The notes under the pieces: generated by a model
The model's input: the letters and a program-made list of their open reading frames with translations, nothing else
Databases searched by the model: none
Told to the model about the DNA's origin: nothing
Source of the DNA: a bacterium
GTDB lineage: Bacteria > Patescibacteriota > Minisyncoccia > Phycocordibacterales > UBA5272
Assembly (NCBI GenBank): GCA_043765155.1
Contig: JAYUJP010000027.1
Span: forward strand, 1,349-65,348
Reading direction: 5' to 3'
Length of the DNA: 64,000 nucleotides
Shown: piece by piece, positions 1,227-39,048 of the stretch
Layout of the letters: each line of letters starts with the position of its first letter
Position numbering within the stretch: position 1 is the stretch's first letter
Position numbers and translations under genes: made by a program

Positions 1227-4200
1227 ATGAAAACAAATACTCCTCAAAACTCAATACATCTCAAACCATCTCTCACCCAGATATATTTTAAGGTATTTGC
1301 TTTTGTAATCATCGTCTCTACTTTATTCTCTGGAATCTCCCCCGCTTTTGCCGCCCTCCCCCAGTCCCTCTCCTACACCGCCGTCCTCCGCGACTCCACT
1401 GGCACCCCCCTCACCGGCACCAACGACTTTAAAGTGCGCTATTACGACGCTAGTACAGCAGGTATACTAATGTATGAAGAAGAATTCTTAGCAACCACTA
1501 TAAACACAGGAGGTACCTTCTTTCTCCCTCTAGGTACAGGATTACCAATAAGTGGTACCTTCTCTAGTATTAACTTCAATTCTCCTGTATTCATTACTCT
1601 AAATACTAGAATAAACTTAACTCCTACCTATGACGGAGAGATGAACCCTCGTATACCACTAAGATCAGTCCCCTACGCCCTTAACTCACAAAAGCTAGAT
1701 GGTAGAATAGTCGGAGGAGCAAATGGTGTAGTAGCCTATGATGCGTCATCCACCATTAACACTAATGGGCTGAATGCGAGCGGCACCATTAACGCTCTTG
1801 GTAATGTAAACATAGCGGGGACCACAACTGCTAGTAGTATATTTTCTACACTGATTAATTCTATTACAGGGATATTTTCTAATTTGTTTTTGACGAGTGT
1901 AGCGACTGGTACAGCTTCTGACTCAGTACTGGTAAGGGATACAGTAACAGGAGAAGTAAAGCAAGATACATTTGCTAACCTACTATCATCAGCTATTACT
2001 AATACTATATCTTTTGCGACGAGTACTAATGTGCTGACGAGTAATGTGGGAGGGGTGATCTCTACAACAGCTATTCCAGCTGGTGCATCATGTATACCAG
2101 GGGGGTCTTCTCCACTAACCAATGAATGCCAGGGTACTAGTGCCTTACAAGCTAATACAACAGGCGTACGTAATTCTGCTTTTGGAGATCTTACTCTTGC
2201 TTCGAATACAGTAGGAGTTTCAAATACGGCCTTGGGTTATTCTGCGCTCGCTGCTAATGTATCAGGAAGTAACAACGGAGCATTTGGAGGATTCTCATTA
2301 TTTAAAAATGTTAGCGGTAACGGTAACTTGGCTAATGGTATTAGCTCACTTTTTAATAATGTAAGCGGGTCACGTAATACTGGAGTTGGTAATTTTTCGC
2401 TTACTAAACTTGTAACCGGAGTAGAAAATATAGCTATTGGATTCAACGCTGGGTTTAGCCAGCTTGGAGGTGACAGCAATATAATAATAGGTTCAAATCT
2501 TGATGTCCCAGATCTTAATGGATCTAATCAGTTAAATATTGGAGACATAATATATGGTGTTGGTGTATCGACTAGCGGTGGAGGAAATATTGGTATAGGT
2601 ACAACCACACCAAACGCGCAGTTCACAACAACAGGCTCAGTGCAATTTGCGGGAATTGGAAATAGCGCCACCAACACAAATATATTAACCGTTGACGCGG
2701 CTGGTAATGTAGAGACAAGAAGCATAGTCTCTCTGCTTGCTGCTTCAGCCAGCACAACAAATATAGTTAGCTTTGCAACCTCTACTAATATATTTACCAG
2801 TAATGTTAATGGGGTAGTGAGTACTACAAGTTTGGCGGGGTTAGTAAAAAACACAAAATGGTACTCTGAAAACTTAGCTGCACCTATAATTGCACCTGTT
2901 GCCACTGGGCTAGCATCTATCGCGGTTGGAGATGGAGCGGCTGCAACAGGACGAAATATATATGCATTTGGTGATGAGGCAGGTAGAGGTAGTAATAGTT
3001 CATATTCTAACTTTTTTGGATGGAGGGCTGGTAAAAATTCTGGCAATGGTGGTACATCCGAGAATAATTTCTTTGGTATAGCGGCAGGAGAAGGAGCAAC
3101 AAATGTTGCGGGTGGAAACTTTTTTGGAAGTAGGTCTGGAGGAGACGCTATAAATGCCAGCTTCTCAAATTTCTTTGGGGAAAGTGCAGGAGAGCTTGCG
3201 ATAAGGGCCAGCTTCTCAAATTTCTTTGGACGGGCTGCAGGATCTGGAGCAATTAACGCCAACAATTCGAACTTCTTTGGACTTGAAGCTGGTCGTAACG
3301 CGTCAAATGCATATGGTTCAAATTTTTATGGAGTAGGCGCAGGATATGAAGCAATTAATGCCAACAACTCTAATTTCCTTGGTACAGGTGCTGGTAATTT
3401 TGCTACAAATGCCGCTAACTCTATATTTATAGGTACCAATGCTGGAACAAGTGACCTCGTAGATAATACTACTGGTGGTACAAGTATACTCATAGGAAGA
3501 AATACAAACACTGGAGGATTTTCAAACTCTATCGCAATAGGTGAGAGTGCGATAAATGATAGGGTTAATCAATTCTTAGTGGGACCTAATTATTCCGACT
3601 TTTCATTTAGAGGAGTTAACTATGTCTTTCCTGCTAGTCAGGGAGCGACTGGTACAACCCTTGTGAATGATGGCTCAGGAGTATTAAGCTGGGCAGCTGC
3701 TGGAGCTAGCACTTCCACAAATGCCTGGAGTCTACTTGGCAATGCTGGGACTAACCCCGCAGTTAATTTTATAGGAACAACAGATGCGCAAGACTTTATC
3801 ATAAGGACAGATAATGTGCAGACAGGTAAAATAAGTGCAGATGGCACAGTTATATCTTTTGGGATAAATGCTGGAGTCGGCACCACTAATGCACTAAGCT
3901 CAAGTTTTATTGGCGTAAATTCTGGAAGCGGAGCAATAAACGCCTTTTTTTCAAACTTCTTTGGCCAAAATGCTGGTGCTAATGTTATTAACGCTAACAG
4001 ATCAAACTTTATTGGAATAAATGCCGGCAATGGTGCATCTGCTGCTCAGTACTCTAACTTGTTTGGATTTAACGCTGGAGTTGACGCCACTAATGCTATC
4101 CATTCTAACTTTATTGGTACTGGATCTGGACAAGATGCAATCAACTCGCAACGTTCTAACTTTATAGGATTTGATGCTGGTGCAGGAGCTCCAGCTGCAT

Positions 4201-7200
4201 CCAATTCAAACTTCTTTGGATCCAGTGCTGGATTTAATGCTTTTAACGCAAGTAGTTCTAACTTTATTGGTAATAGTGCTGGATTTGCAGCATCTAACGC
4301 TAACGCCTCAAACTTCTTTGGACCTGCTGCTGGATTTGGCGCGACTGGCGCAGATAACTCAAATTTTATCGGTGCTCAATCTGGACAGGACGCAATTAAT
4401 TCAAGATTTTCTAATTTTGTAGGGTATGCAGCCGGCTCGGGAGCTTTGAACGCAGATAATTCCAACTTTTTTGGCCAAAATGCGGGGTCTAATACAAATG
4501 GTGCGGCTAGTTCAAACTTCTTTGGATCCAGTGCTGGATTTGGTGCGACTGGCGCTGCTAATTCTAACTTTTTTGGTACCAATGCTGGAAATAGTTCTGC
4601 TAATGCTGGCAACTCTAACTTCTTTGGTCTGAGTGCTGGATTTTTTGCAATTAACGCAAATAATTCCAATTTCTTTGGTGCAAATGCTGGACTTGCTGCT
4701 GCTGACGCCGCCAACTCGAACTTCTTTGGACTTGAAGCTGGTAGTTACGCATCAAATGCATATGGTTCAAATTTTTATGGAGTAAGCGCAGGATACGGAG
4801 CCGTTAATGCTAATAATTCTAACTTCTTTGGTACTGGTGCTGGTAATATTGCTACAAATGCCGCTAATTCTATATTTATAGGTACCAATGCTGGAGCGAG
4901 TGACATTGTAGATAATACTGCTGGTGGTACAAGCATATTAATAGGTAGTGGCAGTAATACTGGCGGCTTCTCAAACTCTATTGCTCTCGGCGCTAATGCA
5001 GTTAATACCAAAACAAATCAATTCTTAGTCGGACCAGATTATTCTGACTTTTCATTCCGTGGAATTAATTACACTTTTCCAAGTGTTCAAGGAAATGCCG
5101 GTGATACATTGACCAATGATGGTACGGGAGTATTAAGCTGGTCAACTTTAACCGGTGGAGGAAGGCCGATTACCGCATCAAATGGTCTTACATTATTAGG
5201 GGTAGACGTGAAGCTGGGGGGAGCGCTTAGTCAGGATACTTCTATAACACAAGGCGCTTTTGATTTAAGTTTCGCTAGAAATGGTTATGAGCTTCAAAAT
5301 TCTAATGCGGCCCCATATCTTGGTATTGGCGGAGCTATAACTGCTAATAATTTTGTTGGTGCTCGTTATACTGATGCTACTAGCGACGTTCAAAATGGTG
5401 TAATACAATTTGGCGGTCCGCGCCTTGCGAGCTTAAGAAGTTATAATAATAGTTTTGGGTATGAGACCGACTCCTCAATTTATGCTTCTCAGTCTGGTCT
5501 AAATTTACTTTTTAATGATAGTAACTCGGTAAATACAAGCGCAAATGTTGATGTGAATGGTCTGATCGTAAGTACTAGTGATGTTACAAGTAGCAATACG
5601 GGATTTCTTGGTCTTACAAATTCGGGTACAGCAAATTTTACAGTATCTGGTCCTAGCATATCTAGCGGACTATCGCTCAATAATGTCTCCGGCTCAGTGA
5701 GGCTATCTCAGCAGATTTTTGGCACAACACAGTCTATGAACATAGTCTCTGGAGGTATAGAATTTGATACACAGTCTACAAATAGATTTCGTATAGAAAA
5801 TAACGGAGACTTAAAAGCATTTGCATATGGATCTGGCAGAAATGATACAAGTGTCAGTACGCCATTTAACTTTTTATATACTGACTCAACAGGAGTCTTA
5901 TCGTCAGCACCTATTTCACTACTCGGGGGTAATGCCAGCAGCAGTATTATAGCAAGTAACGGACTTAACGCATCTGGCACAAATATAAAACTCGGTGGTG
6001 TGCTAACTCAAAATACAAATATAAACTTTGCTACAAATACTCTCACCTTTGACCAGAGTAACTTAAATTCTCGTTTTAAAATAAAAGGAGCGAGTGGATA
6101 TTCTACCCCATCAAATAGAACCCAATCTCTTTTTGAGGCTGAGCATTATGCAAATGCTGGATTCTCGATAGAAAGTTTTGAAAGTGGCCCACTCCTCGCA
6201 AATAAACATGGGACCAAATTAAATTTTACCAATAATCTATCTAACCCCTCTCTTGATCCTCTGGGCTCGTATATTAGAGGTGATAATCTTACAGGTGACT
6301 TTGAGTTTGGCACTAATGCGGGAGAGTCCGTAACATTAGGATCAGGTGGAGTTAGCGTTAATTCAAATAGTTTTATTTATCTATTTGGTAGTGATATACA
6401 ATTATACTCGCCAATAGTAAATTTTAGTCAATTTGGTAGCACTAGAGATGATAGTGCCTCTACTACACCGTCTAATTTTCTATATACAGATATTAACGGC
6501 TCTTTAAAATCTGCGCCAGTATCACTACTCGGTGGTAACTCGACTAGCTCATGGTCTCTGCTTGGCAATGCTGGCACTAATCCTGCAACTACCTTTTTAG
6601 GTACTACAGATGCACAAGACTTATCTATCAGAACTAATAATACAGAAGTTGCAAGGTTTGGGCAAAATAATAATTTTGCATTTGGTGTTGGTGCTCAGGC
6701 TGTTAACTCAGATAGCATAGCTATGGGAGCAGGAGCAGGAGCAGGAGCAACTAATGCACCATTTTCTAACTTCTTTGGGTCTGGTGCTGGATTTGGAGCT
6801 ATAAATGCAGCTAACTCTATATTTATAGGTACAAATGCTGGTGCAAATGACGCAGTAAATAATACTCTTGGTGCCGATACAAGTATACTCATAGGTAACA
6901 ATACAAACACAGGAGGATTTTCAAATTCTATCGCACTCGGTGAGGGAGCGGTAAACACATCTGCAAATCAGCTTTACATTAGGAACGCGATTACTAATTT
7001 TAATCTAGCTGGAGTAAATTACAGTTTTCCAACTGTGCAAGGCGCTCTTAATACTACTCTGAGTAACGATGGAAATGGAAACTTAACCTGGGTTGCACCC
7101 GGAGCAGGATCTATCACAGCATCAAATGGACTTAACGCTGTCGGAGTAGATGTAAGACTGGGTGGTGCTTTAAACACCCCAACTACAATAAACGCAACTG

Positions 7201-9785
7201 GAACAAACGACTTAACCATTTCCGGTACGTCGTATTCAAATAGTACGGGACTGTTTTCGGTCAACAGATTTGCAGGCACCTCAAACGCTGGAGCTGCAAT
7301 ACAAGCCAATTCTACCGCTGGTGCTGGACTTAATATGCTACAAAATGTAGGAGGTAGATTTGATGCTGTTAGTTTTGCTAATGGAGCGGGTACTAATTAT
7401 GGAACCCTGAACACAGCTAGCTTGGGACAGTCTGATACCTTTGCTACAAATGTGGGATCTAGAAGTGTGGCATCTATGAGTATAGGTGGTGGTAGCGTAG
7501 GCCAGTTACGCGGAGCTGAGAATGTTTCTAGTATCACAAATGGATCCGCTGGTAGAGCTTTTGGATCTTTGAATGAAGTAAATTTACAAAATGGTACAAG
7601 TGTAAATGAAGCATATGGTGTATTTACTGCTCTGAGTAAGCCAAGTGGTGCAACAGTAGGTAGATACTCAGGCTTTATTATGGAGGATAATAATACTGGT
7701 GTCGCTAATAGAGCAGGTCTTGCCTTGGTCTCACTTTCTAGTGTAAATTATACTGGCGAATGGGGTATATATAATGCTCTGAATAGAAATAATGCAATTA
7801 ATGGATCACTGATGGTGGGATCTACCACAGCACCAACAGAAAGACTAGACGTAGCGGGTAATCTCAGACTAAGAGGTGCCTTTATGCCGGGCAATCAGGC
7901 TGGTGGAGTGGGGTCACTACTCATATCTCAGGGTCCTAACGTTGCGCCAATATGGTCCAGTACTTCTACACTCGGATTATTGTCTAGTGCAAATAATGGC
8001 CTAACAGTAAACCCGGCAGGCAATGCGCAGCTTGGTGGTGGTCTATTACAAGACACAACTATTATCAATAATAACTTTGCGCTAGATATTGGTACAGGTA
8101 TAAATGGTCTTAAGGTAGCAGCTAATGGGCAAGTGGGTATTGGAAATAATATTGGAGCTATTCCAGGTGCAACTCTCTTAGTAAAAGATACAGTGGCGGG
8201 ATTTGCCTCACTCAATGTAGTCGGAGGGACTTCTGGAGGAGGAGCAATTACTAGATTTATAAATGACACTGGAGCGACTTACTTAACTGGTCTATCAGGT
8301 TCAAATAATAGTGCGCTTGGACTAGGTAATTATATTATACGCGATCAAAATGCAGGATTAAACAGATTGGTAGTAGCCTCAAATGGTAATGTAGGAATAG
8401 GAGATTTTACAAATGTGAATCCAGTAGAAAAGCTATCTGTAGCTGGAAATATAAACATATCTTCTGGTAGTGCTTATATGCTTAATGGTGTGAATGTGTT
8501 AAGATCACAAACCGCTTTGAATAATATTTATGCTGGTCCAGCTGGAAATCTAACTGGTACAGGTCAATACAATACCGCTATAGGATATGATTCATTTAAT
8601 GTAAACACTACTGGACAGCAAAACACTGCGACCGGTTTTCATTCTATGAATGGTAACACCACAGGTTCATTTAACACTGCAAATGGTCTAAATTCACTGT
8701 ATTTCAACTCTACAGGGAGTAACAATAACGCATTTGGATATAATGCTCTCTTTAGAACAACTTCATCTGGAAATAATGCATTCGGTAATGCTGCTTTGCA
8801 AGAAAATGTAAGTGGGATAGATAATGTGGCTATGGGTAATTCAACATTATCATTTTCATTAGGAAATACTAACTCAGCTTTTGGTTCGGCAGCCGGCGCA
8901 CTTTTAGTAAACGGTAATAATAATACCTTCAGTGGCTACAAAGCTGGTTTTGCTCAAACAGCAGGTAGCAACAACTTGGTGCTTGGCGCAAATACGGATC
9001 TTGCAAACCTTACAGGTTCTAATCAGTTAAATATTGCAAATATTATTTTTGGTACAGGACTCACTGGTTCAGTTAGCGCACCGCTAGGTAATATAGGCCT
9101 CGGCACCACCACCCCCGCCGAGCGCCTTCAAGTCCTCGGCGACATCCGTATAGGTACAAGTGGTGTTAACGGCTGTCTCCAGAACTTTGCAGGTACGGCT
9201 ATAGCTGGTGTATGTAGTTCAGATGAAAACCTAAAGATAAATATACAAGATCTAGCTACTAGCACAATGGACAAATTCTCAAAATTAAGATTCGTCTCAT
9301 ATAACTGGAACAACACAGCAGGTGAATTATACAAAAAGGATACTACTGCCACCAATACGGGTATATTAGCGCAACAAGTAGAAGGTATATTCCCAGAACT
9401 AGTAACTACAGATAATAAAGGATACAAGGTAGTAGATATCTCAACTCTGTTTATGTATAGTATGCAAGTAACCAGAGACCTAATAAATAGATTAGACGCA
9501 GAAGTCATTAATCTTAAGAATATAGTAGCGAGCTCCCTCACCGCTGAGCGTATATATGTAAAGAGGGTAGAGGCGGAGGAGGTAATAACACAAAAGTTAT
9601 GTGTTAAAAGCGCGTGCGTGACCGAAACAGAATTTTTAGAAATTATAAATAATAGAAACAACACAAGCGCTAACAATAATATAAATACAAATACAAATAC
9701 AAATACAAATACAACAACAGATACTATGAGCACAAGTACTCAAGATGTACCAGCAGCTACTAGTACAGAAATAGTAATACCTTAA
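1227..9785 (+). CDS. Giant (2852 aa) secreted glycine-rich repeat fibre protein with a C-terminal intramolecular-chaperone (Peptidase S74 / endosialidase-chaperone-like) domain
   Basis: N-terminal signal peptide. About 30 tandem ~20-aa units of type SNFFGxxAGxxAxNAxx. Tail-fibre-like motifs WSLLGNAGTNPAVNFIGTTDAQD and NIGIGTTTPxxxLxVxG. C-terminal CSSDENLKINIQDL...LRFVSYNWNN...GILAQQVEGIFPELV...GYKVVDISTLFMYSMQ matches the S74 auto-cleaving chaperone (Ser-x4-Lys). Ends in an NTNTNT tail. Confidence 0.8.
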   Translation: MKTNTPQNSIHLKPSLTQIYFKVFAFVIIVSTLFSGISPAFAALPQSLSYTAVLRDSTGTPLTGTNDFKVRYYDASTAGILMYEEEFLATTINTGGTFFLPLGTGLPISGTFSSINFNSPVFITLNTRINLTPTYDGEMNPRIPLRSVPYALNSQKLDGRIVGGANGVVAYDASSTINTNGLNASGTINALGNVNIAGTTTASSIFSTLINSITGIFSNLFLTSVATGTASDSVLVRDTVTGEVKQDTFANLLSSAITNTISFATSTNVLTSNVGGVISTTAIPAGASCIPGGSSPLTNECQGTSALQANTTGVRNSAFGDLTLASNTVGVSNTALGYSALAANVSGSNNGAFGGFSLFKNVSGNGNLANGISSLFNNVSGSRNTGVGNFSLTKLVTGVENIAIGFNAGFSQLGGDSNIIIGSNLDVPDLNGSNQLNIGDIIYGVGVSTSGGGNIGIGTTTPNAQFTTTGSVQFAGIGNSATNTNILTVDAAGNVETRSIVSLLAASASTTNIVSFATSTNIFTSNVNGVVSTTSLAGLVKNTKWYSENLAAPIIAPVATGLASIAVGDGAAATGRNIYAFGDEAGRGSNSSYSNFFGWRAGKNSGNGGTSENNFFGIAAGEGATNVAGGNFFGSRSGGDAINASFSNFFGESAGELAIRASFSNFFGRAAGSGAINANNSNFFGLEAGRNASNAYGSNFYGVGAGYEAINANNSNFLGTGAGNFATNAANSIFIGTNAGTSDLVDNTTGGTSILIGRNTNTGGFSNSIAIGESAINDRVNQFLVGPNYSDFSFRGVNYVFPASQGATGTTLVNDGSGVLSWAAAGASTSTNAWSLLGNAGTNPAVNFIGTTDAQDFIIRTDNVQTGKISADGTVISFGINAGVGTTNALSSSFIGVNSGSGAINAFFSNFFGQNAGANVINANRSNFIGINAGNGASAAQYSNLFGFNAGVDATNAIHSNFIGTGSGQDAINSQRSNFIGFDAGAGAPAASNSNFFGSSAGFNAFNASSSNFIGNSAGFAASNANASNFFGPAAGFGATGADNSNFIGAQSGQDAINSRFSNFVGYAAGSGALNADNSNFFGQNAGSNTNGAASSNFFGSSAGFGATGAANSNFFGTNAGNSSANAGNSNFFGLSAGFFAINANNSNFFGANAGLAAADAANSNFFGLEAGSYASNAYGSNFYGVSAGYGAVNANNSNFFGTGAGNIATNAANSIFIGTNAGASDIVDNTAGGTSILIGSGSNTGGFSNSIALGANAVNTKTNQFLVGPDYSDFSFRGINYTFPSVQGNAGDTLTNDGTGVLSWSTLTGGGRPITASNGLTLLGVDVKLGGALSQDTSITQGAFDLSFARNGYELQNSNAAPYLGIGGAITANNFVGARYTDATSDVQNGVIQFGGPRLASLRSYNNSFGYETDSSIYASQSGLNLLFNDSNSVNTSANVDVNGLIVSTSDVTSSNTGFLGLTNSGTANFTVSGPSISSGLSLNNVSGSVRLSQQIFGTTQSMNIVSGGIEFDTQSTNRFRIENNGDLKAFAYGSGRNDTSVSTPFNFLYTDSTGVLSSAPISLLGGNASSSIIASNGLNASGTNIKLGGVLTQNTNINFATNTLTFDQSNLNSRFKIKGASGYSTPSNRTQSLFEAEHYANAGFSIESFESGPLLANKHGTKLNFTNNLSNPSLDPLGSYIRGDNLTGDFEFGTNAGESVTLGSGGVSVNSNSFIYLFGSDIQLYSPIVNFSQFGSTRDDSASTTPSNFLYTDINGSLKSAPVSLLGGNSTSSWSLLGNAGTNPATTFLGTTDAQDLSIRTNNTEVARFGQNNNFAFGVGAQAVNSDSIAMGAGAGAGATNAPFSNFFGSGAGFGAINAANSIFIGTNAGANDAVNNTLGADTSILIGNNTNTGGFSNSIALGEGAVNTSANQLYIRNAITNFNLAGVNYSFPTVQGALNTTLSNDGNGNLTWVAPGAGSITASNGLNAVGVDVRLGGALNTPTTINATGTNDLTISGTSYSNSTGLFSVNRFAGTSNAGAAIQANSTAGAGLNMLQNVGGRFDAVSFANGAGTNYGTLNTASLGQSDTFATNVGSRSVASMSIGGGSVGQLRGAENVSSITNGSAGRAFGSLNEVNLQNGTSVNEAYGVFTALSKPSGATVGRYSGFIMEDNNTGVANRAGLALVSLSSVNYTGEWGIYNALNRNNAINGSLMVGSTTAPTERLDVAGNLRLRGAFMPGNQAGGVGSLLISQGPNVAPIWSSTSTLGLLSSANNGLTVNPAGNAQLGGGLLQDTTIINNNFALDIGTGINGLKVAANGQVGIGNNIGAIPGATLLVKDTVAGFASLNVVGGTSGGGAITRFINDTGATYLTGLSGSNNSALGLGNYIIRDQNAGLNRLVVASNGNVGIGDFTNVNPVEKLSVAGNINISSGSAYMLNGVNVLRSQTALNNIYAGPAGNLTGTGQYNTAIGYDSFNVNTTGQQNTATGFHSMNGNTTGSFNTANGLNSLYFNSTGSNNNAFGYNALFRTTSSGNNAFGNAALQENVSGIDNVAMGNSTLSFSLGNTNSAFGSAAGALLVNGNNNTFSGYKAGFAQTAGSNNLVLGANTDLANLTGSNQLNIANIIFGTGLTGSVSAPLGNIGLGTTTPAERLQVLGDIRIGTSGVNGCLQNFAGTAIAGVCSSDENLKINIQDLATSTMDKFSKLRFVSYNWNNTAGELYKKDTTATNTGILAQQVEGIFPELVTTDNKGYKVVDISTLFMYSMQVTRDLINRLDAEVINLKNIVASSLTAERIYVKRVEAEEVITQKLCVKSACVTETEFLEIINNRNNTSANNNINTNTNTNTNTTTDTMSTSTQDVPAATSTEIVIP

Positions 9786-24813: not shown

Positions 24814-24891
24814 GTGCAAAATTTTCACTATTTTGTTTGTTAAGGGGGTAGGTACATGCTATAATTATATTATTAAAATAATAAAATAAAT

Positions 24892-25746
24892 ATGCTATTA
24901 AAAGAATTTGTGATTAGTATTAAAAATATAGCTGCACCACTATACGAGACCCTATTTCTGGTTGGAGTAGTTTTTATAATAATTGGGCTGTATAAAATAA
25001 TATTTAAAAATACAAATGATATAGATAAAAAAGCGGCCAAGAAATGTATAACCTGCGGCTTAGCTTCATTTTTAGCGATAATTATAATTGTGGGTACTAT
25101 CACATTCATATCGCCTCTTGTTGGTATTGGTTTACTTGGTGATATACCATACGAACCCCCTGTAAAAAAAACGGGGGAGTACAATAAGATTAGCTATAAT
25201 GCTAGCTTAAAAACTAGGGACATGCAAAGTGTTTACGATAAGACTAATAAGCTTGTACTGGTTGCTGGGGGAAGAGTATTTATAGCCAGACAAGCAGAAG
25301 ATTATTCAAGAATTGGTTTTATAGTATCAAGGTCAAATTTTGACAGTTTTAAAAAAGACATAAAGAAACTGGTATCTGAAAAATTATATGCAGAAAACAT
25401 AAATGAAATCAGCTCACCAGATAAAAAAAGATTAGAATTACAGCAGACAGATAATTTAGAAATAGTTATGGGTTATATCGAAATACTGCACCTATCAATG
25501 TGGAATATGGCAATAATATATTTACCTGTACACCCCGCGATAATAATCAGCATATTACTTTTTTCAACAATCGCCTGGTTTATGTATTCTAAGTATAAAA
25601 AAGATAAGCGACATAGAGAAATGCATCCAGAGTCTGCTAATATTACCACTAATTCAACCGGATTTTTTAGGGACATGACAGTGGGATTATTTTTCCTGAT
25701 GCTGTTAATCGCATTTCCAATTTTATTTTTTATTAATAGTTACTAG
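24892..25746 (+). CDS. Hypothetical membrane protein
   Basis: ORF track. Several TM segments. Confidence 0.4.
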   Translation: MLLKEFVISIKNIAAPLYETLFLVGVVFIIIGLYKIIFKNTNDIDKKAAKKCITCGLASFLAIIIIVGTITFISPLVGIGLLGDIPYEPPVKKTGEYNKISYNASLKTRDMQSVYDKTNKLVLVAGGRVFIARQAEDYSRIGFIVSRSNFDSFKKDIKKLVSEKLYAENINEISSPDKKRLELQQTDNLEIVMGYIEILHLSMWNMAIIYLPVHPAIIISILLFSTIAWFMYSKYKKDKRHREMHPESANITTNSTGFFRDMTVGLFFLMLLIAFPILFFINSY

Positions 25747-31480: not shown

Positions 31481-31635
31481 GTCATATTTTTTAAATTTAA
31501 GAAAAAATAACTTAAAAATATATATCTGAAATTTTAAATCAAGAGTTAAATAAACAAGAAATAAATGTTAAAAAATTCTCTTTTTTCAGAAGCTCATATT
31601 TTGTAATCTCCCTACCCTTAATAATATTAACATGT

Positions 31636-31866
31636 TTGATATTTTATAATTATATTATCCATCCTTGTGGCAATGATTGGGGGTGTAACTTGTATTTTGC
31701 TCTTGCTTTCATGCTCACGCTGCCTGTACTTATAGTAACTTCTTTTTTAATACTCTTTAATTTTCTTTTTAGAAGAAGTGTACAGAGTAAGTGGGCCAGA
31801 TTCTTTTTAGTCATATTCCTTTTCACACTAATAGTTTTATTCTTAGTTTCCTATTTTCTATTTTAA
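31636..31866 (+). CDS. Small hypothetical membrane protein
   Basis: ORF track. Two hydrophobic helices. Confidence 0.25.
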   Translation: MIFYNYIIHPCGNDWGCNLYFALAFMLTLPVLIVTSFLILFNFLFRRSVQSKWARFFLVIFLFTLIVLFLVSYFLF

Positions 31867-31949
31867 TGGCTTCCGAGTATTAAAATTGTGTTATTGGTTA
31901 TAGGCCTAAACCACTTTACATTAGACTATGAATAGGTTATAATTAGACC

Positions 31950-33005
31950 ATGTTAAAACCAGTATTTAGCCTAAATACAGAGCTGTTAGATAATATAGTA
32001 AAGATTAAAAATATTGTAAGTGAGTTAAATAATCAAAAGTTTTCAGGCTTGGTATTGTTAGACTTGGAAAAAAATAGTTATGCGCTATCCGCTTTTGCCT
32101 CTACTAGTATAGAAGGAAACCCCCTACCCTTAACAGACGTAAAAAGACTTTTAAAACAAAAGCCAGAAAAAATTAGAGATACAGAAAGAGAGGTGCTAAA
32201 TTATAATAAGGCTCTTGAATTTTTAAATACTGAAACATCCAGAGACCTAAAGGTAAAAGTAAATACAGATAAAAGCAAAAAATTAGAATCAAAAATAAAT
32301 AATGATTTTATTTGCAAGATACAGTCTATTGTAATAGAGGGGCTATTAGATAAAAGTAATATTGGGAAATTTAGGAAAAATCCTGTCATAGTCAACGACC
32401 CTAAAAAAAGAAAAGTAGCATATATACCGGCAGATGCAAAAGACGTAGAAAGACTAATGAGTGAGCTCACGAATTTTATACATTCAGAAGCCAAAAATGT
32501 CGACCCTTTAATTTTGGCTGGGATTTTCCATAAGCAATTTGTTATAATTCATCCGTTTATGGATGGTAACGGTAGGACAACTAGACTGGTGACAAAGTAT
32601 TTATTGGCTAGTATGGGACTAGACACTTTTAAGCTTTTTAGTTTTGAGAATTACTATAATAAAAATGTGACTAATTATTTTTCAAAAGTAGGTGTGCTGG
32701 GTGATTATTATGAGATAAAAGATAAAATTGATTTTACTGACTGGCTAGTTTATTTTACAGGAGGTATTATTGATGAGCTTCTAAGAGTTCAGAAAATACT
32801 TGAGAGCACTAATATAAAAAGAACAGAACCTTATGAGCAGATAATTCTTGATTTTATTAAAAAGAACAAATCTATCTCTAAAAGTGAATATGAAAAAATT
32901 ACAGACAGAAAAAGATCTACCCAAATTTTAGATTTTAAAAGATTGGTAGATAAAGGTATGATAAAAAGAGAAAATAAAGGCAAGGCCACTTATTATACTA
33001 TCTAA
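31950..33005 (+). CDS. Fic family protein (class II, N-terminal inhibitory helix) with a C-terminal winged HTH
   Basis: Fic motif HPFMDGNGRTTRL. Inhibitory motif (S/T)xxxE(G/N) = STSIEGN upstream of the core. C-terminal wHTH. Confidence 0.8.
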   Translation: MLKPVFSLNTELLDNIVKIKNIVSELNNQKFSGLVLLDLEKNSYALSAFASTSIEGNPLPLTDVKRLLKQKPEKIRDTEREVLNYNKALEFLNTETSRDLKVKVNTDKSKKLESKINNDFICKIQSIVIEGLLDKSNIGKFRKNPVIVNDPKKRKVAYIPADAKDVERLMSELTNFIHSEAKNVDPLILAGIFHKQFVIIHPFMDGNGRTTRLVTKYLLASMGLDTFKLFSFENYYNKNVTNYFSKVGVLGDYYEIKDKIDFTDWLVYFTGGIIDELLRVQKILESTNIKRTEPYEQIILDFIKKNKSISKSEYEKITDRKRSTQILDFKRLVDKGMIKRENKGKATYYTI

Positions 33006-33040
33006 AATAGGATATAGTACAAAAGCCTATTGCTTATATA

Positions 33041-33050
33041 GGGGGGGGGG
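33041..33050 (+). repeat. G10 homopolymer directly abutting a TGATATAAT -10 box. Candidate phase-variable promoter.
   Basis: gggggggggg then tgatataat (33051..33059), 31 nt before the ATG at 33090. Confidence 0.6.
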
Positions 33051-33089
33051 TGATATAATTGACTTAGTAAAAATTAAATAATAATAAAA

Positions 33090-34346
33090 ATGCAACAAAA
33101 TAAAATCTTAAAAAAAATTAGCATAAGCATACTAATATTAGTAGGAATATTTAACATAAGTCATGCGCAGATTCCAAGTAATGATGTAGACAGATGCATA
33201 AAAATAAAGAAAAATATCCGCTTTTTAAGTCGTGATAGCAGTAGATCAAATGACGTTACACGGCTTCAGATTTTTCTAAAAAATGAAGGGTATCTAAAAT
33301 CACAGGCGGATGGAGTATTTAGAGTTAGTACTCGCTCAGCTGTGATTACATTCCAGAAAGATAATGGATTTGGCGCGGCTGCCAAAGGTAATGTTGGCCC
33401 AACTACTCGCACAAAAATACAAGAGCTAACTTGCAATAATGCCGATGTTACTGTTAAGCCAGTGAATACTAACATTATCACATCAGGACAAATAAATACT
33501 GCAGTCTCAACAGTAACAGTAAATAAAGTTCAACCATATCTGGAATCATATATAGATTATGTAGACTCTAAGAGAGATGCATTTGTCATGAATTGGAAAG
33601 CCTCTAGTCCCGTTGGTGTTAAGCTTATTGTGGATTGTCGCCCAGGAATTAATATAATATCTGACCAGAGTAATGGTAAAAATATCTGTGATAGTAACGG
33701 CACTGTTGGAGTGTGGGAGAATGTAGACTCTGGTTCTGTTATTATAAGATCGAAAGGCAATGTATCTAGTTTTGGAGTGGGGGCAACTTTAGGAATTCTT
33801 GATAAAAATGGAGAATTCGTAAAGAATAGTAATATTTCTGATGGAAAAGGGAGACTTATGATGCAAAATGAGGTATTTGTTATAACTTTTCCAGCTGATG
33901 CAGCTGCTGTAGCAAGTGCTGCCATTAATACACAAGTTCCGTCAGTATTTTCTAACGGAGTAGAGTCTATTAATGGCATCGCTGTGCCTCCTATGCCAAG
34001 TGCCCCTAATTTGAATATCGCTGGTATAGATACAAATAATAACGGTATGCGCGACGATGTAGACCGAGCATTAGCTAGCCGCACTGGGGCTAATTCAGAG
34101 ATTTATAATTTTGCTGTTAAGTCTGCCAAAAATTTGCAACTAGCCATAACTTCGGTTAGTGCAACTACAGCAAGTAGGGCGATATTTGAAGATACAAATC
34201 AGCAAGCTTGCGGTAGTGCGTCAGCAAAAGAGGGCGCTAAAATTTCTAATGAGGAGACGCTGAATACCAGAGAAAGACAGGGCGCTGCTGTAGCAGCTTA
34301 TTTTAGTGGTCTTACTGCAGAAAATGCTGTTATTAGTTGTCAATAA
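33090..34346 (+). CDS. Secreted protein with an N-terminal peptidoglycan-binding domain
   Basis: Signal peptide. VTRLQIFLKNEGYL...DGVFRVSTRSAVITFQKDNGF. Confidence 0.55.
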   Translation: MQQNKILKKISISILILVGIFNISHAQIPSNDVDRCIKIKKNIRFLSRDSSRSNDVTRLQIFLKNEGYLKSQADGVFRVSTRSAVITFQKDNGFGAAAKGNVGPTTRTKIQELTCNNADVTVKPVNTNIITSGQINTAVSTVTVNKVQPYLESYIDYVDSKRDAFVMNWKASSPVGVKLIVDCRPGINIISDQSNGKNICDSNGTVGVWENVDSGSVIIRSKGNVSSFGVGATLGILDKNGEFVKNSNISDGKGRLMMQNEVFVITFPADAAAVASAAINTQVPSVFSNGVESINGIAVPPMPSAPNLNIAGIDTNNNGMRDDVDRALASRTGANSEIYNFAVKSAKNLQLAITSVSATTASRAIFEDTNQQACGSASAKEGAKISNEETLNTRERQGAAVAAYFSGLTAENAVISCQ

Positions 34347-34372
34347 TAAATTCGCTATAACTTTAACTAAAA

Positions 34373-35431
34373 ATGAAGAAAATCATTACTAAAATATTTA
34401 ATTATTTAAAATATGTTATATGTATAATTATATTTTTAGTTCTATGTTTTTTTCTATATAGCGTATATATAAAGTTTTTTGTTGAAAGTAAAAGTTTAGA
34501 AAATATTAAGCCTCAAAATACAGAAATCATTCAGATTAATATTAACGGTAATCAAGAGGAGGTAGCTTCTCAGGAATATAATAGTAGCTCAGGTGAAGTG
34601 GTTATATTTGTTGGTGGACTATCTGGCTGGGGAGACACATGGTCTAGATCTATTTTAGAATTTAATAAAAATACAAAAAATAGATACAGAGTCATAGTGA
34701 TAGATATACCACCTTTTGGATTTTCAGAAAAGTCAAAAGAAAATAATTATAACAGAGTATCTCAAGCTAAAAGGATAAATACTTTTATAGAAAATAAAAA
34801 CCTTAAAGATGTAATCTTTGTTGCGCATTCTTATGGAGCAGGACTAGCTGCCGAGGCTATTTTGCAAAATAAAAGTTATTATAAAAAGTTTATTATAATT
34901 GACGGAGCCTTGTCTATAAAAAGTCTAGAAATTAAACTTGTTAATAATGTTGATAGCAATAATAATTTCTCTTTAGACGTAAAAGAAAAATATAATTTTT
35001 TAGAAAATATAAAAAAATCACTGTTGTCATCTATAATAAGGGTTGTAGTTCATACAGATTTTATCGCTAAAAATAGATTAGAGTCTTTTGTTAATATAAC
35101 TTCAAATATAGATAAGAGTCTGGTTGATAAATATGTTTTCCCGACTTATAAAAAAGAGTCATCAAATAAGCTAGGCGATTGGGCCAATCAATACGTGTCA
35201 GAAAGTAAGAATAATATGAGTAACAATATTGAGAATTATAAGAGCTTAAGTATACCTGTTCGCTTAATATGGGGTGAAGAAGATACTTTAACTCCAATAA
35301 AAGAAACAGAAATACTTTTGAAAAATGTATCTGACATAAAAATTAGAAAGTTGAAAGGTGTTGGACATATACCAATGATAGAAGATTATAAAAATTTTGA
35401 CGAGGCCCTTATTAATTCAATTAATAATTAA
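34373..35431 (+). CDS. Alpha/beta hydrolase fold protein, membrane-anchored
   Basis: N-terminal TM. Nucleophile elbow AHSYGAG (GxSxG-type). C-terminal GHIPM (catalytic His). Confidence 0.6.
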   Translation: MKKIITKIFNYLKYVICIIIFLVLCFFLYSVYIKFFVESKSLENIKPQNTEIIQININGNQEEVASQEYNSSSGEVVIFVGGLSGWGDTWSRSILEFNKNTKNRYRVIVIDIPPFGFSEKSKENNYNRVSQAKRINTFIENKNLKDVIFVAHSYGAGLAAEAILQNKSYYKKFIIIDGALSIKSLEIKLVNNVDSNNNFSLDVKEKYNFLENIKKSLLSSIIRVVVHTDFIAKNRLESFVNITSNIDKSLVDKYVFPTYKKESSNKLGDWANQYVSESKNNMSNNIENYKSLSIPVRLIWGEEDTLTPIKETEILLKNVSDIKIRKLKGVGHIPMIEDYKNFDEALINSINN

Positions 35432-35506
35432 AAAATGTGCTATAATTATATTAATTAAAATTTAAAAGTATTAAGTAGATAATTCTACAAAATCAAAATC
35501 AAAAAT

Positions 35507-35926
35507 ATGCAAAAAGCAAATAAAATAGTAAAGTTAATAACCCTTTTTCTAACAGTGTTGTTTGTAGGTATAGTGTTAATGGAGCGTATACCAGGAGTGA
35601 TGATAGCTACAGCTGACAAGTATGAGAGTCTTATGTTTGGGTTATTTAAAATATCACTACTTGACGATATAACTCACGGCTTGTCTGGATTGCTGGGGCT
35701 GTATGCACTCATAAAAGGTTATAGATATAGTGTATATTTTTTAATGTTTATTGGCGGGTATTATTCTCTTGATGCCACCTTTTTTATAATAAATGGATTT
35801 ATAACCGGTCAGGGATTTATTGAAAATATAATGTTAAATGGCCCTCATATCGGTATCACTGCACTTATTATCTTTGCGCTATTTAAATCCCTTAAGAAAA
35901 TTGAGCTTAATCAAGACATCAAATAA
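35507..35926 (+). CDS. Small integral membrane protein
   Basis: Four predicted TM helices. Confidence 0.4.
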   Translation: MQKANKIVKLITLFLTVLFVGIVLMERIPGVMIATADKYESLMFGLFKISLLDDITHGLSGLLGLYALIKGYRYSVYFLMFIGGYYSLDATFFIINGFITGQGFIENIMLNGPHIGITALIIFALFKSLKKIELNQDIK

Positions 35927-35961
35927 TATAGAGTATAAATTTATATTTTTAAATAATATAT

Positions 35962-38493
35962 ATGCTTAAGAAAATAAATAAAATTAGTCTTAAAAATATT
36001 AAGCCATTTAAAGTTGCGGTATTTTTATGCGTGCTTACTTTTATTATTTTGATTTTGTCACAGACTATTTATACAAAAAATAACCCAAGGCAAGATAAAC
36101 TTAATAGAGAGCTAGAAAATACTAAAAATAAAATAGTGAATGAAGTAACAGAATTGTACCCTATAAAAGTCGTAGACATAGTGGTGCCGCATAGTACAGA
36201 GGAGATATCTGAGTATGTTAAAAAGTATGACCATATATCGATTGGAGGTGGACGTAATAGTATGGGTGGGCAGACTGCAAGCGAGAAAGCGGTGCAGATA
36301 GACATGCGGGAATTTAATAAAATACTTAACCTATCAACCACTACAAAAGAAATAACCGTACAGACTGGTGCAAGATGGAGAGATGTGCAAGATTATATCG
36401 ACCCATATAACCTCTCTGTAAAAATAATGCAGACTTATTCTAACTTTACTGTAGGGGGGTCACTGTCTGTTAACGTACACGGTAGATACGTAGGACTCGG
36501 GCCTATAATATTATCTGTTAAAAGTATAAAAGTAGTGCTAGCGAGCGGTGAAGTTGTAATAGCGAGCCCAATAGAAAACCAAGAGATATTTTTCTCAGCT
36601 ATTGGTGGTTATGGGGGTATAGGAGTTATAACAGAGGCAACTTTGGAGTTAGCTGATAATGTGAGTGTAGAGCGATCAAGGGTTAAGATGCCAATAGGTG
36701 AGTATGCTAATTATTTTAAAAATATAATAAAAGCTAGTAGTTCAAAAATACTTTTTCATAATGGTGATATATATCCGATGGATTTTGATAGTGTGAGCGG
36801 TGTTAGTTGGATTGTTACTGATAAGACACCTACAACAAAAGATAAATTAATACCAAGATCTCAAGATTATTGGCTTGAGCGTTTTGTCTGGGTGACTATG
36901 AGCGAATGGCCTCTAGGCAAGTGGATACGTGAATATATCTTAGAACCTGTTTTATACAGCGGCACTCAGCCAGTACATACTAGAAATTATGAGGCAAGCT
37001 ATGATATTATGGAGCTAGAGCCAGAAAGCAGAGCGTCTAGTACTTATGTGTTACAAGAATACTTTGTACCTGTGGAAAATTTTGATGTATGGATACCAAA
37101 GATGAAAAAAGTTTTTGTTGATAATAATGTAAATCTTTTGAATGTTTCTATACGTCACGCCCTCCCTGATCCAGGGTCAAAACTTGCTTGGGCAAAAGGT
37201 GAGAGCTTTGCTTTTGTTATATATTATAAACAAGGTACTGATGAAAAATCAAAACAAGAAGTTGCTAATTGGACAAGGCAAATGATAGATCAGGTGTTAA
37301 TGGTTGACGGAGGTTATTATCTACCTTATCAGCCACATGCGACCGACGAGCAATTTTATGCTGCGTATCCAAAGTGGCAAGAGTATTTTGAAATTAAAAA
37401 TAAGTATGACTCTACAGGTAAATTCACAAATAAGCTTTGGGATAAATATTATAATAAAAACAAAATAGAAAATTATAAAAATAAACAAGAAATTATAAGT
37501 ATATCCAGTAGCACAAAAGACTATTTTAGACCCGCTGATAATATGTACTTGTCTATACCTGAGTGGTATATAGTTTATAGTGCAGGCGAATATGCAAGTG
37601 TACTCAAAAATAATATGCCCAGCAGTTTTAATTACTCACAAGCTATAAAAAATTACTGGGAACAATTTGATATAGTAAATAAAAAAGTTGCGACAAGTAC
37701 AACCAGTAACTTAGATTATATTAATATACTAAAAGTTATAGGAGTCAGCTTTACCGCAGAAAATATTGTAAAGGTCCTGTATGAAAATACTATAGGTAGA
37801 GTGTCAGAATATTTAGCTGGAAATGTACAAGTGGCAGAGGATAAATTAGCCTATGAGGGGGCAAAAAGTTACGCAGACTTTATTTATGACTACCCTTGGT
37901 ATGACTTTAACTATGGATTTTATTTTAAAAAAGTGTGGACTGTAAGTGATTATGAAGCTACGCGAGGAGTAGAAAAAAAATATACTATCGGGCAAAATAC
38001 AAGAAGAGTAGAGAGGAAAATGTTCCTGAGTTTAGAGTACGGCATAAAGTATTTGTATGCAAAAGCTATTGCTTATGCTACCCACACAAAGTTTGGAGTT
38101 CAGAATGATATAATAAGCGCAGTAGTCATAAAAAATTATACAGAAAAAGAGAGTAATAAAAATATAAAAGAAATAATTAGTGCTGCGCATTATCAGCCGT
38201 TTACTAAAAAGTTAATAGAAGATTTTGATTACGCATACAAAAATAATTATGAGTATAAAATTTTAGATATAGCTGGAAATAGCCTAATAACTTTTTCTTA
38301 TATAGATAGCGTAGGTGCAATTATCTCAGATAACACAAAAGAGATTTTGCGTGATGAAGAAAACATAGATGTAGATGGAGTACTAATTAAAAAAGATAGA
38401 ATAACTGTTGAGACTGGTGTCAGTAATCTATTTGCAATTTATAAAGAGTTAAAAAATAAAAATATAGTAATAGACCATCTATATGATTACTAG
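35962..38493 (+). CDS. FAD-binding (PCMH-type) oxidase, D-arabinono-1,4-lactone/gulonolactone-oxidase-like, with an N-terminal TM and a long C-terminal extension
   Basis: FAD_binding_4-like VVPHSTEEISEYVKKYDHISIGGGRNSMGGQ. ALO-like middle region. About 350 aa unassigned C-terminal. Confidence 0.55.
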   Translation: MLKKINKISLKNIKPFKVAVFLCVLTFIILILSQTIYTKNNPRQDKLNRELENTKNKIVNEVTELYPIKVVDIVVPHSTEEISEYVKKYDHISIGGGRNSMGGQTASEKAVQIDMREFNKILNLSTTTKEITVQTGARWRDVQDYIDPYNLSVKIMQTYSNFTVGGSLSVNVHGRYVGLGPIILSVKSIKVVLASGEVVIASPIENQEIFFSAIGGYGGIGVITEATLELADNVSVERSRVKMPIGEYANYFKNIIKASSSKILFHNGDIYPMDFDSVSGVSWIVTDKTPTTKDKLIPRSQDYWLERFVWVTMSEWPLGKWIREYILEPVLYSGTQPVHTRNYEASYDIMELEPESRASSTYVLQEYFVPVENFDVWIPKMKKVFVDNNVNLLNVSIRHALPDPGSKLAWAKGESFAFVIYYKQGTDEKSKQEVANWTRQMIDQVLMVDGGYYLPYQPHATDEQFYAAYPKWQEYFEIKNKYDSTGKFTNKLWDKYYNKNKIENYKNKQEIISISSSTKDYFRPADNMYLSIPEWYIVYSAGEYASVLKNNMPSSFNYSQAIKNYWEQFDIVNKKVATSTTSNLDYINILKVIGVSFTAENIVKVLYENTIGRVSEYLAGNVQVAEDKLAYEGAKSYADFIYDYPWYDFNYGFYFKKVWTVSDYEATRGVEKKYTIGQNTRRVERKMFLSLEYGIKYLYAKAIAYATHTKFGVQNDIISAVVIKNYTEKESNKNIKEIISAAHYQPFTKKLIEDFDYAYKNNYEYKILDIAGNSLITFSYIDSVGAIISDNTKEILRDEENIDVDGVLIKKDRITVETGVSNLFAIYKELKNKNIVIDHLYDY

Positions 38494-38532
38494 TCTAAAA
38501 AAATAATATACACAATATATAAATAATTTTTA

Positions 38533-39048
38533 TTATTTCTTCTCAATAACTATACCGTAACCTCTTGGCATTTTTTTGAGTGGCTCGGCTATCTTATATT
38601 CGCAGGGGATGATGGCAAGCACGCGGTTAAGCCTTTCTTTTAAAAAGCTCTCCTCCATAAATTTACCTCTACCTTTTAATTGTAGTTCAAATTTTACTCT
38701 GTGTCCCTCTTTTATCCACTCAGCTGACTGATTAGTTTTGACTGCTATGTCATGATCGCTAATACCAACACTCAGCTGTACATTTTTGGTCTCAGTTGAG
38801 TTAGATTTTGCTTTTACGTCTTTTAACTTTTTAGATAATTCGTATTGATATTTGCCATAATCAGCTATACGCGCTACTGGTATACCCTCACCACCACCTG
38901 AGACCTCGATAAGGTCTAGTCCGGATTTTTTTGCAGCGGCCATAGCATCTTCACGCCTTAGCACTCCTAAGTTAGATCCGTTCTGGTCTATTACGCGTAG
39001 CTCAGGTGAGCGTATCGCGTTGTTTATCATTGTTCTTGGTGGATGCAC
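38533..39048 (-). CDS. infC: Translation initiation factor IF-3. The true start may be internal or non-ATG.
   Basis: INNAIRSPELRVIDQNGSNLGVL...PVARIADYGKYQYE, both IF-3 domains. Confidence 0.8.
   Translation of the reverse strand: MHPPRTMINNAIRSPELRVIDQNGSNLGVLRREDAMAAAKKSGLDLIEVSGGGEGIPVARIADYGKYQYELSKKLKDVKAKSNSTETKNVQLSVGISDHDIAVKTNQSAEWIKEGHRVKFELQLKGRGKFMEESFLKERLNRVLAIIPCEYKIAEPLKKMPRGYGIVIEKK

Follow-up and report, generated by a model that had tools for sequence, protein, structure and literature searches.

A poly-G tract in the spacer of an extended -10 promoter as a candidate phase-variable switch of a secreted protein gene in an uncultured Patescibacteria genome

Introduction

Phase variation mediated by simple sequence repeats (SSRs) is textbook knowledge for pathogens adapted to their hosts, among them Neisseria, Haemophilus, Campylobacter, Helicobacter and Bordetella. 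The length of the homopolymeric tract in the porA, opc and fetA promoters gives graded transcription. The poly-C tracts of Bordetella pertussis fim2 and fim3 and the poly-G tracts of the Treponema pallidum tpr genes lie just upstream of the -10 element or the start and set the activity of surface-protein promoters; the fim promoters need the activator BvgA, and the tract alters the phasing of the BvgA binding site. The promoter-proximal T tract of Helicobacter pylori sabA reportedly acts as a 'rheostat' with graded rather than all-or-none output, and this tract, which adjoins the -35 region, is said to act through DNA bending and phasing and not through the length of the core spacer. Bacteria of the Candidate Phyla Radiation (CPR)/Patescibacteria are regarded for the most part as episymbionts, and their genomes are tiny.

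Unstable homopolymers located between the -10 and -35 elements alter the expression of the meningococcal genes porA, fetA and opc, where slipped-strand mispairing changes tract length and with it the spacer and the level of transcription (PMC2791445). Homopolymer variation is reported for B. pertussis (PMC1891110), T. pallidum TprL is the subject of one study (PMC7864442) and graded expression from the sabA promoter that of another (PMC4081817), and Campylobacter and Helicobacter genomes reportedly carry several poly-G tracts each, concentrated in genes for surface structures and variable between close populations (PMC8355987, PMC6321876). Full-text literature searches on Patescibacteria, the CPR and Saccharibacteria turned up no report of phase variation mediated by SSRs; what came closest was the hypervariable coding repeat of a Gracilibacterium (PMC6851277). 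The class of mechanism is already known, while the CPR is a bacterial group in which none seems to have been described.

The locus considered here is a G10 run, termed T1, within a 64-kb stretch of DNA that was analysed as a whole (the window). In its predicted layout it resembles Neisseria meningitidis porA (poly-G), opc (poly-C) and fetA (poly-C), where an uninterrupted tract of about 9–14 nt occupies the same spacer position ahead of a surface protein gene, and the predicted spacer of T1 runs through 17–18 bp at G9–G10. Unlike the porA class, T1 combines a weak -35 with a perfect extended -10 element fused to the tract, and its module is duplicated before several genes of one island, with two copies apparently leaderless. 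The host also differs from Neisseria in being an environmental, uncultured member of the CPR/Patescibacteria and not a host-adapted pathogen. Unlike fim2 and fim3, T1 is not known to have an activator site; unlike that of sabA, its tract is of G and lies between the predicted -35 and -10 elements. The tracts of Campylobacter and Helicobacter are mostly coding and act by frameshift, whereas the four tracts described here are intergenic.

Methods

Contigs for comparison were retrieved by exact-protein look-ups in other samples and assembly pipelines, and identical or near-identical contigs came from assemblies labelled BUSI22-1_SAMN194337xx. According to the supplement of Busi et al. 2022 (PMC9021309), SAMN19433746 represents biofilm on a rock in the Birch Creek glacier stream, New Zealand, whereas the rocks of SAMN19433747, SAMN19433751 and SAMN19433752 were all sampled within a single reach of the Lancelot glacier stream. 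The libraries were sequenced on an Illumina NovaSeq S4, a platform prone to errors in long runs of G. The pipelines compared were SPIRE-style scaffolds, k141 MEGAHIT contigs and Logan. A slip-prone mononucleotide repeat was defined as an uninterrupted run of about 8 nt or more. Occurrence in other bacteria was surveyed by scanning GTDB, with one genome per species, for G8TGATATAAT.

Results and Discussion

Anatomy of the predicted poly-G promoter

Features of the locus and of three related modules are listed in Table 1. The window reads AAAAGCCTA TTGCTT ATATA GGGGGGGGGG TGA TATAAT TGACTTAG...(30 nt)...ATG. A preliminary description of this DNA had reported a G10 run fused to a -10 box 31 nt upstream of an ATG, and both the fusion and the distance are confirmed, the latter counted from the last base of the -10 box to the A of the start codon. 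The run is the sole G/C homopolymer longer than 7 nt in the window. The G9 word is expected 0.04 times according to dinucleotide-preserving shuffles, and its observed count was reached in none of 100 shuffles. The earlier judgement that the run is non-random in this genome stands, although the GC content on which it was based, roughly 30 %, was too low (35 % in the whole window and about 33 % around the tract). At G10, T1 is long enough to be slip-prone, as are the paralogous tracts (G8 to G14).

Table 1. Coordinates in the window of the T1 locus and its island, and composition of the paralogous modules T2 to T4
Feature	Coordinates	Strand	Description
Strain-variable island	31481..38532		From conserved 470-aa PG_binding-like gene to infC; blastn of window vs contig L007
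Fic-domain gene	31950..33005	+	Pfam Fic E=1.6e-19; upstream neighbour of tract
Upstream half of promoter module	33021..33040	+	AAAAGCCTATTGCTTATATA; -35-like hexamer and 5-nt linker; aligns with T2–T4
-35-like hexamer	33030..33035	+	TTGCTT; 3/6 matches to TTGACA, TTG kept
Poly-G tract T1	33041..33050	+	G10 here, read straight from the window sequence; proposed hypermutable spacer element
Extended -10 box	33051..33059	+	TGATATAAT (TGnTATAAT), perfect; abuts tract; invariant across all four modules
Predicted 5' leader	33060..33089	+	Short, A/T-rich, without Shine-Dalgarno; transcription start inferred
Gene downstream of T1	33090..34346	+	418 aa; signal-peptide-like N-terminus (MQQNKILKKISISILILVGIFNISHAQ), PG_binding_1
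T2			TTACTTGTTTA-Gn-TGATATAATT; cargo 652-aa signal-peptide protein; -10 to ATG 9 nt; G8, G11, G14 observed
T3			TTGCTTATATA-Gn-TGATATAATTGAACTAGTAAAAATTAAATAA; cargo 136-aa multi-pass membrane protein; not leaderless; G10, G11 observed
T4			TTGCTTATCGT-Gn-TGATATAATT; cargo secreted repeat protein; -10 to ATG 7 nt; G10, G11, G12 observed

On its -10 side the tract borders a perfect TGnTATAAT, while the -35 side was assigned solely from its position and its conservation in four modules, so that TTGCTT is treated here as the putative -35 element of the T1 promoter. Its match to just three consensus positions explains why a consensus promoter scan missed the promoter. As the tract lies between the -35-like hexamer and the extended -10 box, tract length sets the spacer, which is 5+n+3 bp long (17 bp for G9, 18 bp for G10 and 19 bp or more for G11 or more). 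The first ~25 nt of the predicted leader are shared with module T3, and genes of the window usually lack a Shine-Dalgarno sequence, as this one does.

The tract is intergenic, 36 nt 3' of the Fic stop codon and 40 nt 5' of the ATG, and no ORF of at least 40 aa was found to cross it on either strand. An intragenic contingency locus of the frameshift type was ruled out on the grounds of this intergenic location. A riboswitch, attenuator or terminator role of the G run was also rejected since the RNA fold of positions 32996–33095 was no better than that of shuffled sequences (z=0.96). Rfam gave nothing at E<=1 for positions 32850–33250, and nothing but tRNAs at the gathering level in the whole window. 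A lone G run cannot, by reasoning, form an intramolecular G-quadruplex. A search of the window for further copies of the module found none beyond chance.

The motif TGNTATAAT occurs at 29 sites in the window against 8.3 expected (3.5-fold over-represented, with none of 100 shuffles as high), and these sites are mostly upstream of genes. About 13 of 44 upstream regions contain it in sense orientation, 6–140 nt before the start codon. This over-representation and placement mark the predicted extended -10 element as an ordinary promoter signal of the genome and the G run as the unusual part of T1. In the other promoters with this motif the spacer is A/T-rich and the -35 hexamer mostly weak, with a TTG-type hexamer at 17–18 bp in several cases; at T1, the G run stands in place of the normal A/T-rich spacer. 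Shorter G runs were seen elsewhere in the window. A second extended -10 promoter (ttgtttgttaaGGGGGtaggtacaTGCTATAAT, 24830–24865), which precedes a gene at 24892, has G5 in its spacer, and at 25156–25177 a TAGCTATAAT promoter comes after a hairpin terminator of the form CCCCC...GGGGG. Longer tracts may originate from such short G runs in spacers.

The downstream gene and its host

The 418-aa product of the gene downstream of T1 is predicted to be secreted on account of its signal-peptide-like N-terminus and a PG_binding_1 domain at residues 52–109 (Pfam E=2.2e-10). The C-terminal ~300 aa are without an assigned fold, and an AlphaFold2 single-sequence model was uninformative (pLDDT 38). Only three homologues were found among 5.8 billion proteins, consisting of one truncated allele and two distant PG_binding_1 proteins. 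The truncated allele of the sister strain carries a nonsense mutation, Q259*, which leaves 258 aa.

Genes encoding NusA, SecY, DnaK, ClpB and infC are present in the window together with five tRNAs, and the window is chromosomal. The nearest named relatives of its DnaK are from MAGs designated 'Candidatus Pacebacteria', 'Paceibacterota', 'Parcubacteria' and 'Patescibacteria group', which identifies the host as a Parcubacteria/Paceibacteria-type member of the CPR. The window also contains a giant ORF of 2852 aa (1227–9785) whose sole Pfam match is a C-terminal Peptidase_S74 domain (endosialidase intramolecular chaperone); the product resembles a tail fibre or a giant surface protein.

Paralogous modules in strain variants of the same species

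Alignment with strain variants of the same species identified T2, T3 and T4 as modules of the same design as T1. Each consists of TTGCTT or TTACTT, 5 nt, Gn and TGATATAATT, with the hexamer at the same offset in all four. All four tracts are intergenic promoter elements and all four cargo genes encode predicted envelope proteins, three with signal-peptide-like N-termini and one a small multi-pass membrane protein. The short distances from the -10 box to the ATG at T4 and T2 imply leaderless mRNAs, and both of these modules are preceded by a terminator or by a long stretch of intergenic DNA.

In one contig (L134, 4877–5590), the called ORF runs upstream across the G12 tract of T4 as far as a GTG codon and comprises 237 aa; in L138, with G10, it comprises 258 aa. 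The more likely start is the ATG that follows the -10 box by 7 nt, and the mRNA would then be leaderless. The ORF called through T4 is thus an annotation artefact, by which changes in tract length create spurious protein 'variants' in databases. The proteins downstream of T2 (652 aa) and T4 (about 228 aa from the ATG) share a C-terminal VNIKFR after a proline-rich linker (L007, 4480–4553; L134, 5520–5590) and are otherwise unrelated. This ending was found in no other ORF of the window, L007 or L134, and may be a shared sorting or anchoring signal.

Occurrence of the promoter design in other bacteria

The GTDB scan detected at least 119 loci with G8TGATATAAT in many phyla, and these counts are lower bounds. 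The organism of the window was not among the matches listed. Among those listed, a TTGnnn hexamer with at least four of six matches, in many cases TTGACA, was present at 90 of 123 sites, compared with about 13 % expected by chance according to our estimate. This hexamer was usually 3–6 nt upstream of the tract, resulting in spacers of 14–22 bp. For matches listed with more than 400 nt of downstream sequence, an ORF started within 150 nt at 99 of 107 sites. The downstream ORFs of listed loci were signal-peptide-like in 74 % of cases, as judged by a crude hydrophobic N-terminus rule, compared with 21 % of other ORFs of these loci (Fisher p=2e-24). At least 12 loci are of CPR origin by record title (Saccharibacteria, Nanosyncoccus, Nomurabacteria, Taylorbacteria, Amesbacteria and 'Patescibacteria group'). 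This pattern indicates that T1 fits a widespread architecture linked to surface proteins. In the JGI metagenomes, from which the lineage is absent, a degenerate pattern of the module gave no matches, and TA-G9-TGATATAATT gave two, both from unrelated organisms.

A proposed spacer-length switch

It is likely that the G tract is the phase-variable spacer repeat of a sigma-70-type extended -10 promoter. The layout would be a -35-like TTGCTT, 5 nt, Gn and TGA-TATAAT, with Gn as a hypermutable SSR from which slipped-strand mispairing during replication would remove G residues or to which it would add them. Each gain or loss would shift the spacing and the rotational phasing of the -35 and -10 elements, so that transcription of the secreted PG-binding protein would go up or down in a stochastic and heritable manner, amounting to phase variation or 'volume control'. 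Copies of this portable promoter and leader module, each with a variable tract of its own, would drive three or more further predicted envelope proteins in the island and so constitute a small 'phasome'. We infer from the sequence that the element would be active as a promoter, that tract length would affect expression and that switching within a lineage would be reversible and of high frequency.

Alternatively, the tract could be a neutral mutational hotspot, which slips while the extended -10 element, read-through from Fic or both drive the gene at any length. It is established knowledge that extended -10 promoters tolerate poor -35 elements, and the hexamer at T1 is weak; as a perfect extended -10 box can work with a weak -35 element and TTGCTT matches at only three of six positions, spacer length might matter little. 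A terminator scan and the RNA fold (z=0.96) showed no convincing terminator between the Fic gene and the tract, and read-through could blunt any OFF state. The tract also still varies in the lineage whose 418-aa gene has a stop codon. Against this, in four modules the tract directly abuts the TG of the -10 box at an identical place, with a TTG-type hexamer fixed 5 nt upstream, and the layout recurs in more than 100 genomes with a canonical TTGACA and strong enrichment of secreted cargo among the matches listed. The A/T-rich spacers of the other promoters in the genome mean that a G run needs a reason to persist, and T2 and T4 do have upstream terminators or long intergenic gaps, together with leaderless starts. 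Neutral slippage is considered unlikely.

Tract-length variation between strains and samples

For T1, G10 was present in the window and in contigs L001, L002, L006 and L007, and G9 in L008 to L012 and L141. The window-type strain had G10 in three assemblies, possibly of one sample (ERZ28573911, ERZ27314321 and Logan SRR14689469), and only G10 was associated with an intact 418-aa gene among the matches listed. The G9/G10 polymorphism was found in the sister lineage from the Lancelot stream, whose gene carries Q259*. L007 had no mismatches to L009, L010, L011 or L012 over 1.1–3.2 kb, and the single gap was the tract. Larger differences were present at T2, where L008 and L141 differ by two SNPs in 8 kb, yet have G14 and G11, respectively. 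Tract length thus differed with unchanged flanks both at T1 (G9 vs G10) and at T2 (G11 vs G14). For T3, two contigs of a single assembly of one sample (ERZ28573618) meet at the tract, with L144 ending in ...TATA-G11-TGATATAA and L138 beginning with ...TATA-G10-TGATATAATTG. This pair and the contig breaks at tracts described below would hint, indirectly, at mixed lengths inside one population.

These lengths might be errors around one fixed true length, with varied lengths and contig breaks arising from NovaSeq errors in G runs and from choices made in de Bruijn graphs. The libraries were indeed run on this platform, the differences at T1 are mostly just ±1 G and error k-mers also break contigs at homopolymers. 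Breaks at tracts were observed for L003/L006, L140, L145 and L012, and in the Logan assembly one contig stops 18 nt past T1 and the next starts immediately after T1. The signs expected of an artefact, namely irreproducible lengths, differences of only ±1 and an equal effect on other homopolymers, were nevertheless not found in the contigs compared. In pairwise comparisons of contigs, 13 of 14 gap openings were in poly-G tracts and the remaining one was in a T-run 10 nt from a contig end, while the A7, A8, T7 and G6/G7 runs of the same contigs never varied. G10 at T1 recurred in all three assemblies of the window-type strain, and the combination of G8 at T2 with G9 at T1 recurred in ERZ28573732 and Logan SRR14689461. 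An artefact is weakened by this reproducibility over SPIRE-style scaffolds, MEGAHIT contigs and Logan, and by differences of 3 and 6 nt at T2 (G8/G11/G14), to which the range from G10 to G12 at T4 can be added. Four independent tracts vary, the layout of the module is positionally exact, and in a genome of 35 % GC all four paralogous modules have kept their G runs free of interruptions. An artefact of sequencing or assembly, which the preliminary description had offered as its alternative, is accordingly rated as unlikely. The same description had proposed a comparison of strains, in which an absent or non-variable tract would have counted against a switch; T1 was instead G9 or G10 in near-identical contigs of different samples. 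Its suggestion of a candidate phase-variable promoter is supported as far as sequence allows, with lengths varying at four modules, and the secreted PG-binding product that it named agrees with the domain prediction given above.

A strain-variable island and its possible recombination

The island between the 470-aa PG_binding-like gene and infC has three gene contents in three strain variants and houses all four poly-G modules. In the window, it encodes Fic, the PG-binding protein, an alpha/beta-hydrolase, a DUF4383 protein and an 843-aa FAD-binding protein. The island of L007 (2443–7848) encodes a 652-aa protein, Fic, the truncated PG-binding protein and a 147-aa protein, and that of L134 (2748–6340) encodes a DUF4874/DUF4832 protein with proteins of 136, 237 and 213 aa. 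Two variants of the island co-occur in one sample (ERZ27314332).

The promoter and PG-binding gene differ at four positions in about 1.3 kb between the window (32900–34200) and L007 (5800–7100), one of them being Q259*, while the adjacent Fic gene has about 7–29 differing positions per 100 bp. Near-identity of promoter and PG-binding gene beside a diverged Fic gene suggests recent recombination of the cassette. L007 contains a 146-bp direct duplicate of the infC 3' end (4651–4796 and 7850–7995) just upstream of Fic, and thus the Fic–PG-binding cassette is bracketed by repeats in the sister strain; the window has a single copy of this stretch (38534–38679). The short contigs L009 to L011 terminate inside the 146-bp infC repeat.

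It is very improbable that the tract is simply a landmark of recombination or cassette exchange, or a protein-binding site, that marks the boundary of a portable module without switching expression: the module does stand before four unrelated genes, promoter and PG-binding gene are nearly identical between strains whose flanking Fic gene has diverged by 10–15 % and island content varies between strains, but homology between modules on both sides of the tract places it inside the module and not at its edge, recombination fails to explain length variation between otherwise identical sequences, and neither a recombinase gene nor inverted repeats were seen adjoining the tract.

A possible phasome in the CPR and similar loci elsewhere

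A broader proposal, which is tentative, is that the spacer-length switch at T1 is part of a CPR 'phasome' in which portable poly-G cassettes, some of them leaderless, are recombined onto envelope genes of the island and switch stochastically, and that this design is widespread in uncultured bacteria. The duplicated portable module, the leaderless variants and the environmental CPR host would add interest to a known class of mechanism. If the switch is real, contingency loci serve ultra-small environmental bacteria in the biofilms of glacier streams as a means of diversifying the cell envelope, with a bearing on host attachment or phage evasion; a phasome could vary host attachment or help escape from phages. 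It would also represent a general and largely unrecognized regulatory module outside pathogens, as the design of a -35 element, 3–6 nt, Gn, TGATATAAT and a secreted protein is present, for example, in surface-protein genes of Saccharibacteria and type-IV-pilin-like genes of gut MAGs. Counts of tract lengths in metagenomes are a possible read-out of selection on surface proteins in unculturable organisms. The survey suggests that poly-G tracts with extended -10 promoters before secreted proteins are common in MAGs, where they are probably mis-assembled or mis-annotated, for example by calling an ORF through the tract.

Several of the surveyed loci form groups. Seven have a type-IV-pilin-like gene (MKKHKLYEGFTIIEVVLVLAIAG...) with its ATG 6–7 nt after G(n)TGATATAAT. 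The -35 element in most of these is TTGTAA or TTGCAA, 6 nt before the tract, with TTGACT or TTGCTA in two (L094 and L109), and the tract lengths across the species representatives are G8, G9, G9, G11, G11, G12 and G13. The single genome of Candidatus Ancillula glyptotermitis contains at least six sites with G>=8-TGATATAAT, and in the Clostridia MAG Lapin-012_bin71 the promoters of three lipoprotein genes are almost identical, each combining G9 with a spacer of 15 bp. Such multi-site genomes suggest that genome-wide phasomes occur in uncultured gut bacteria and termite symbionts.
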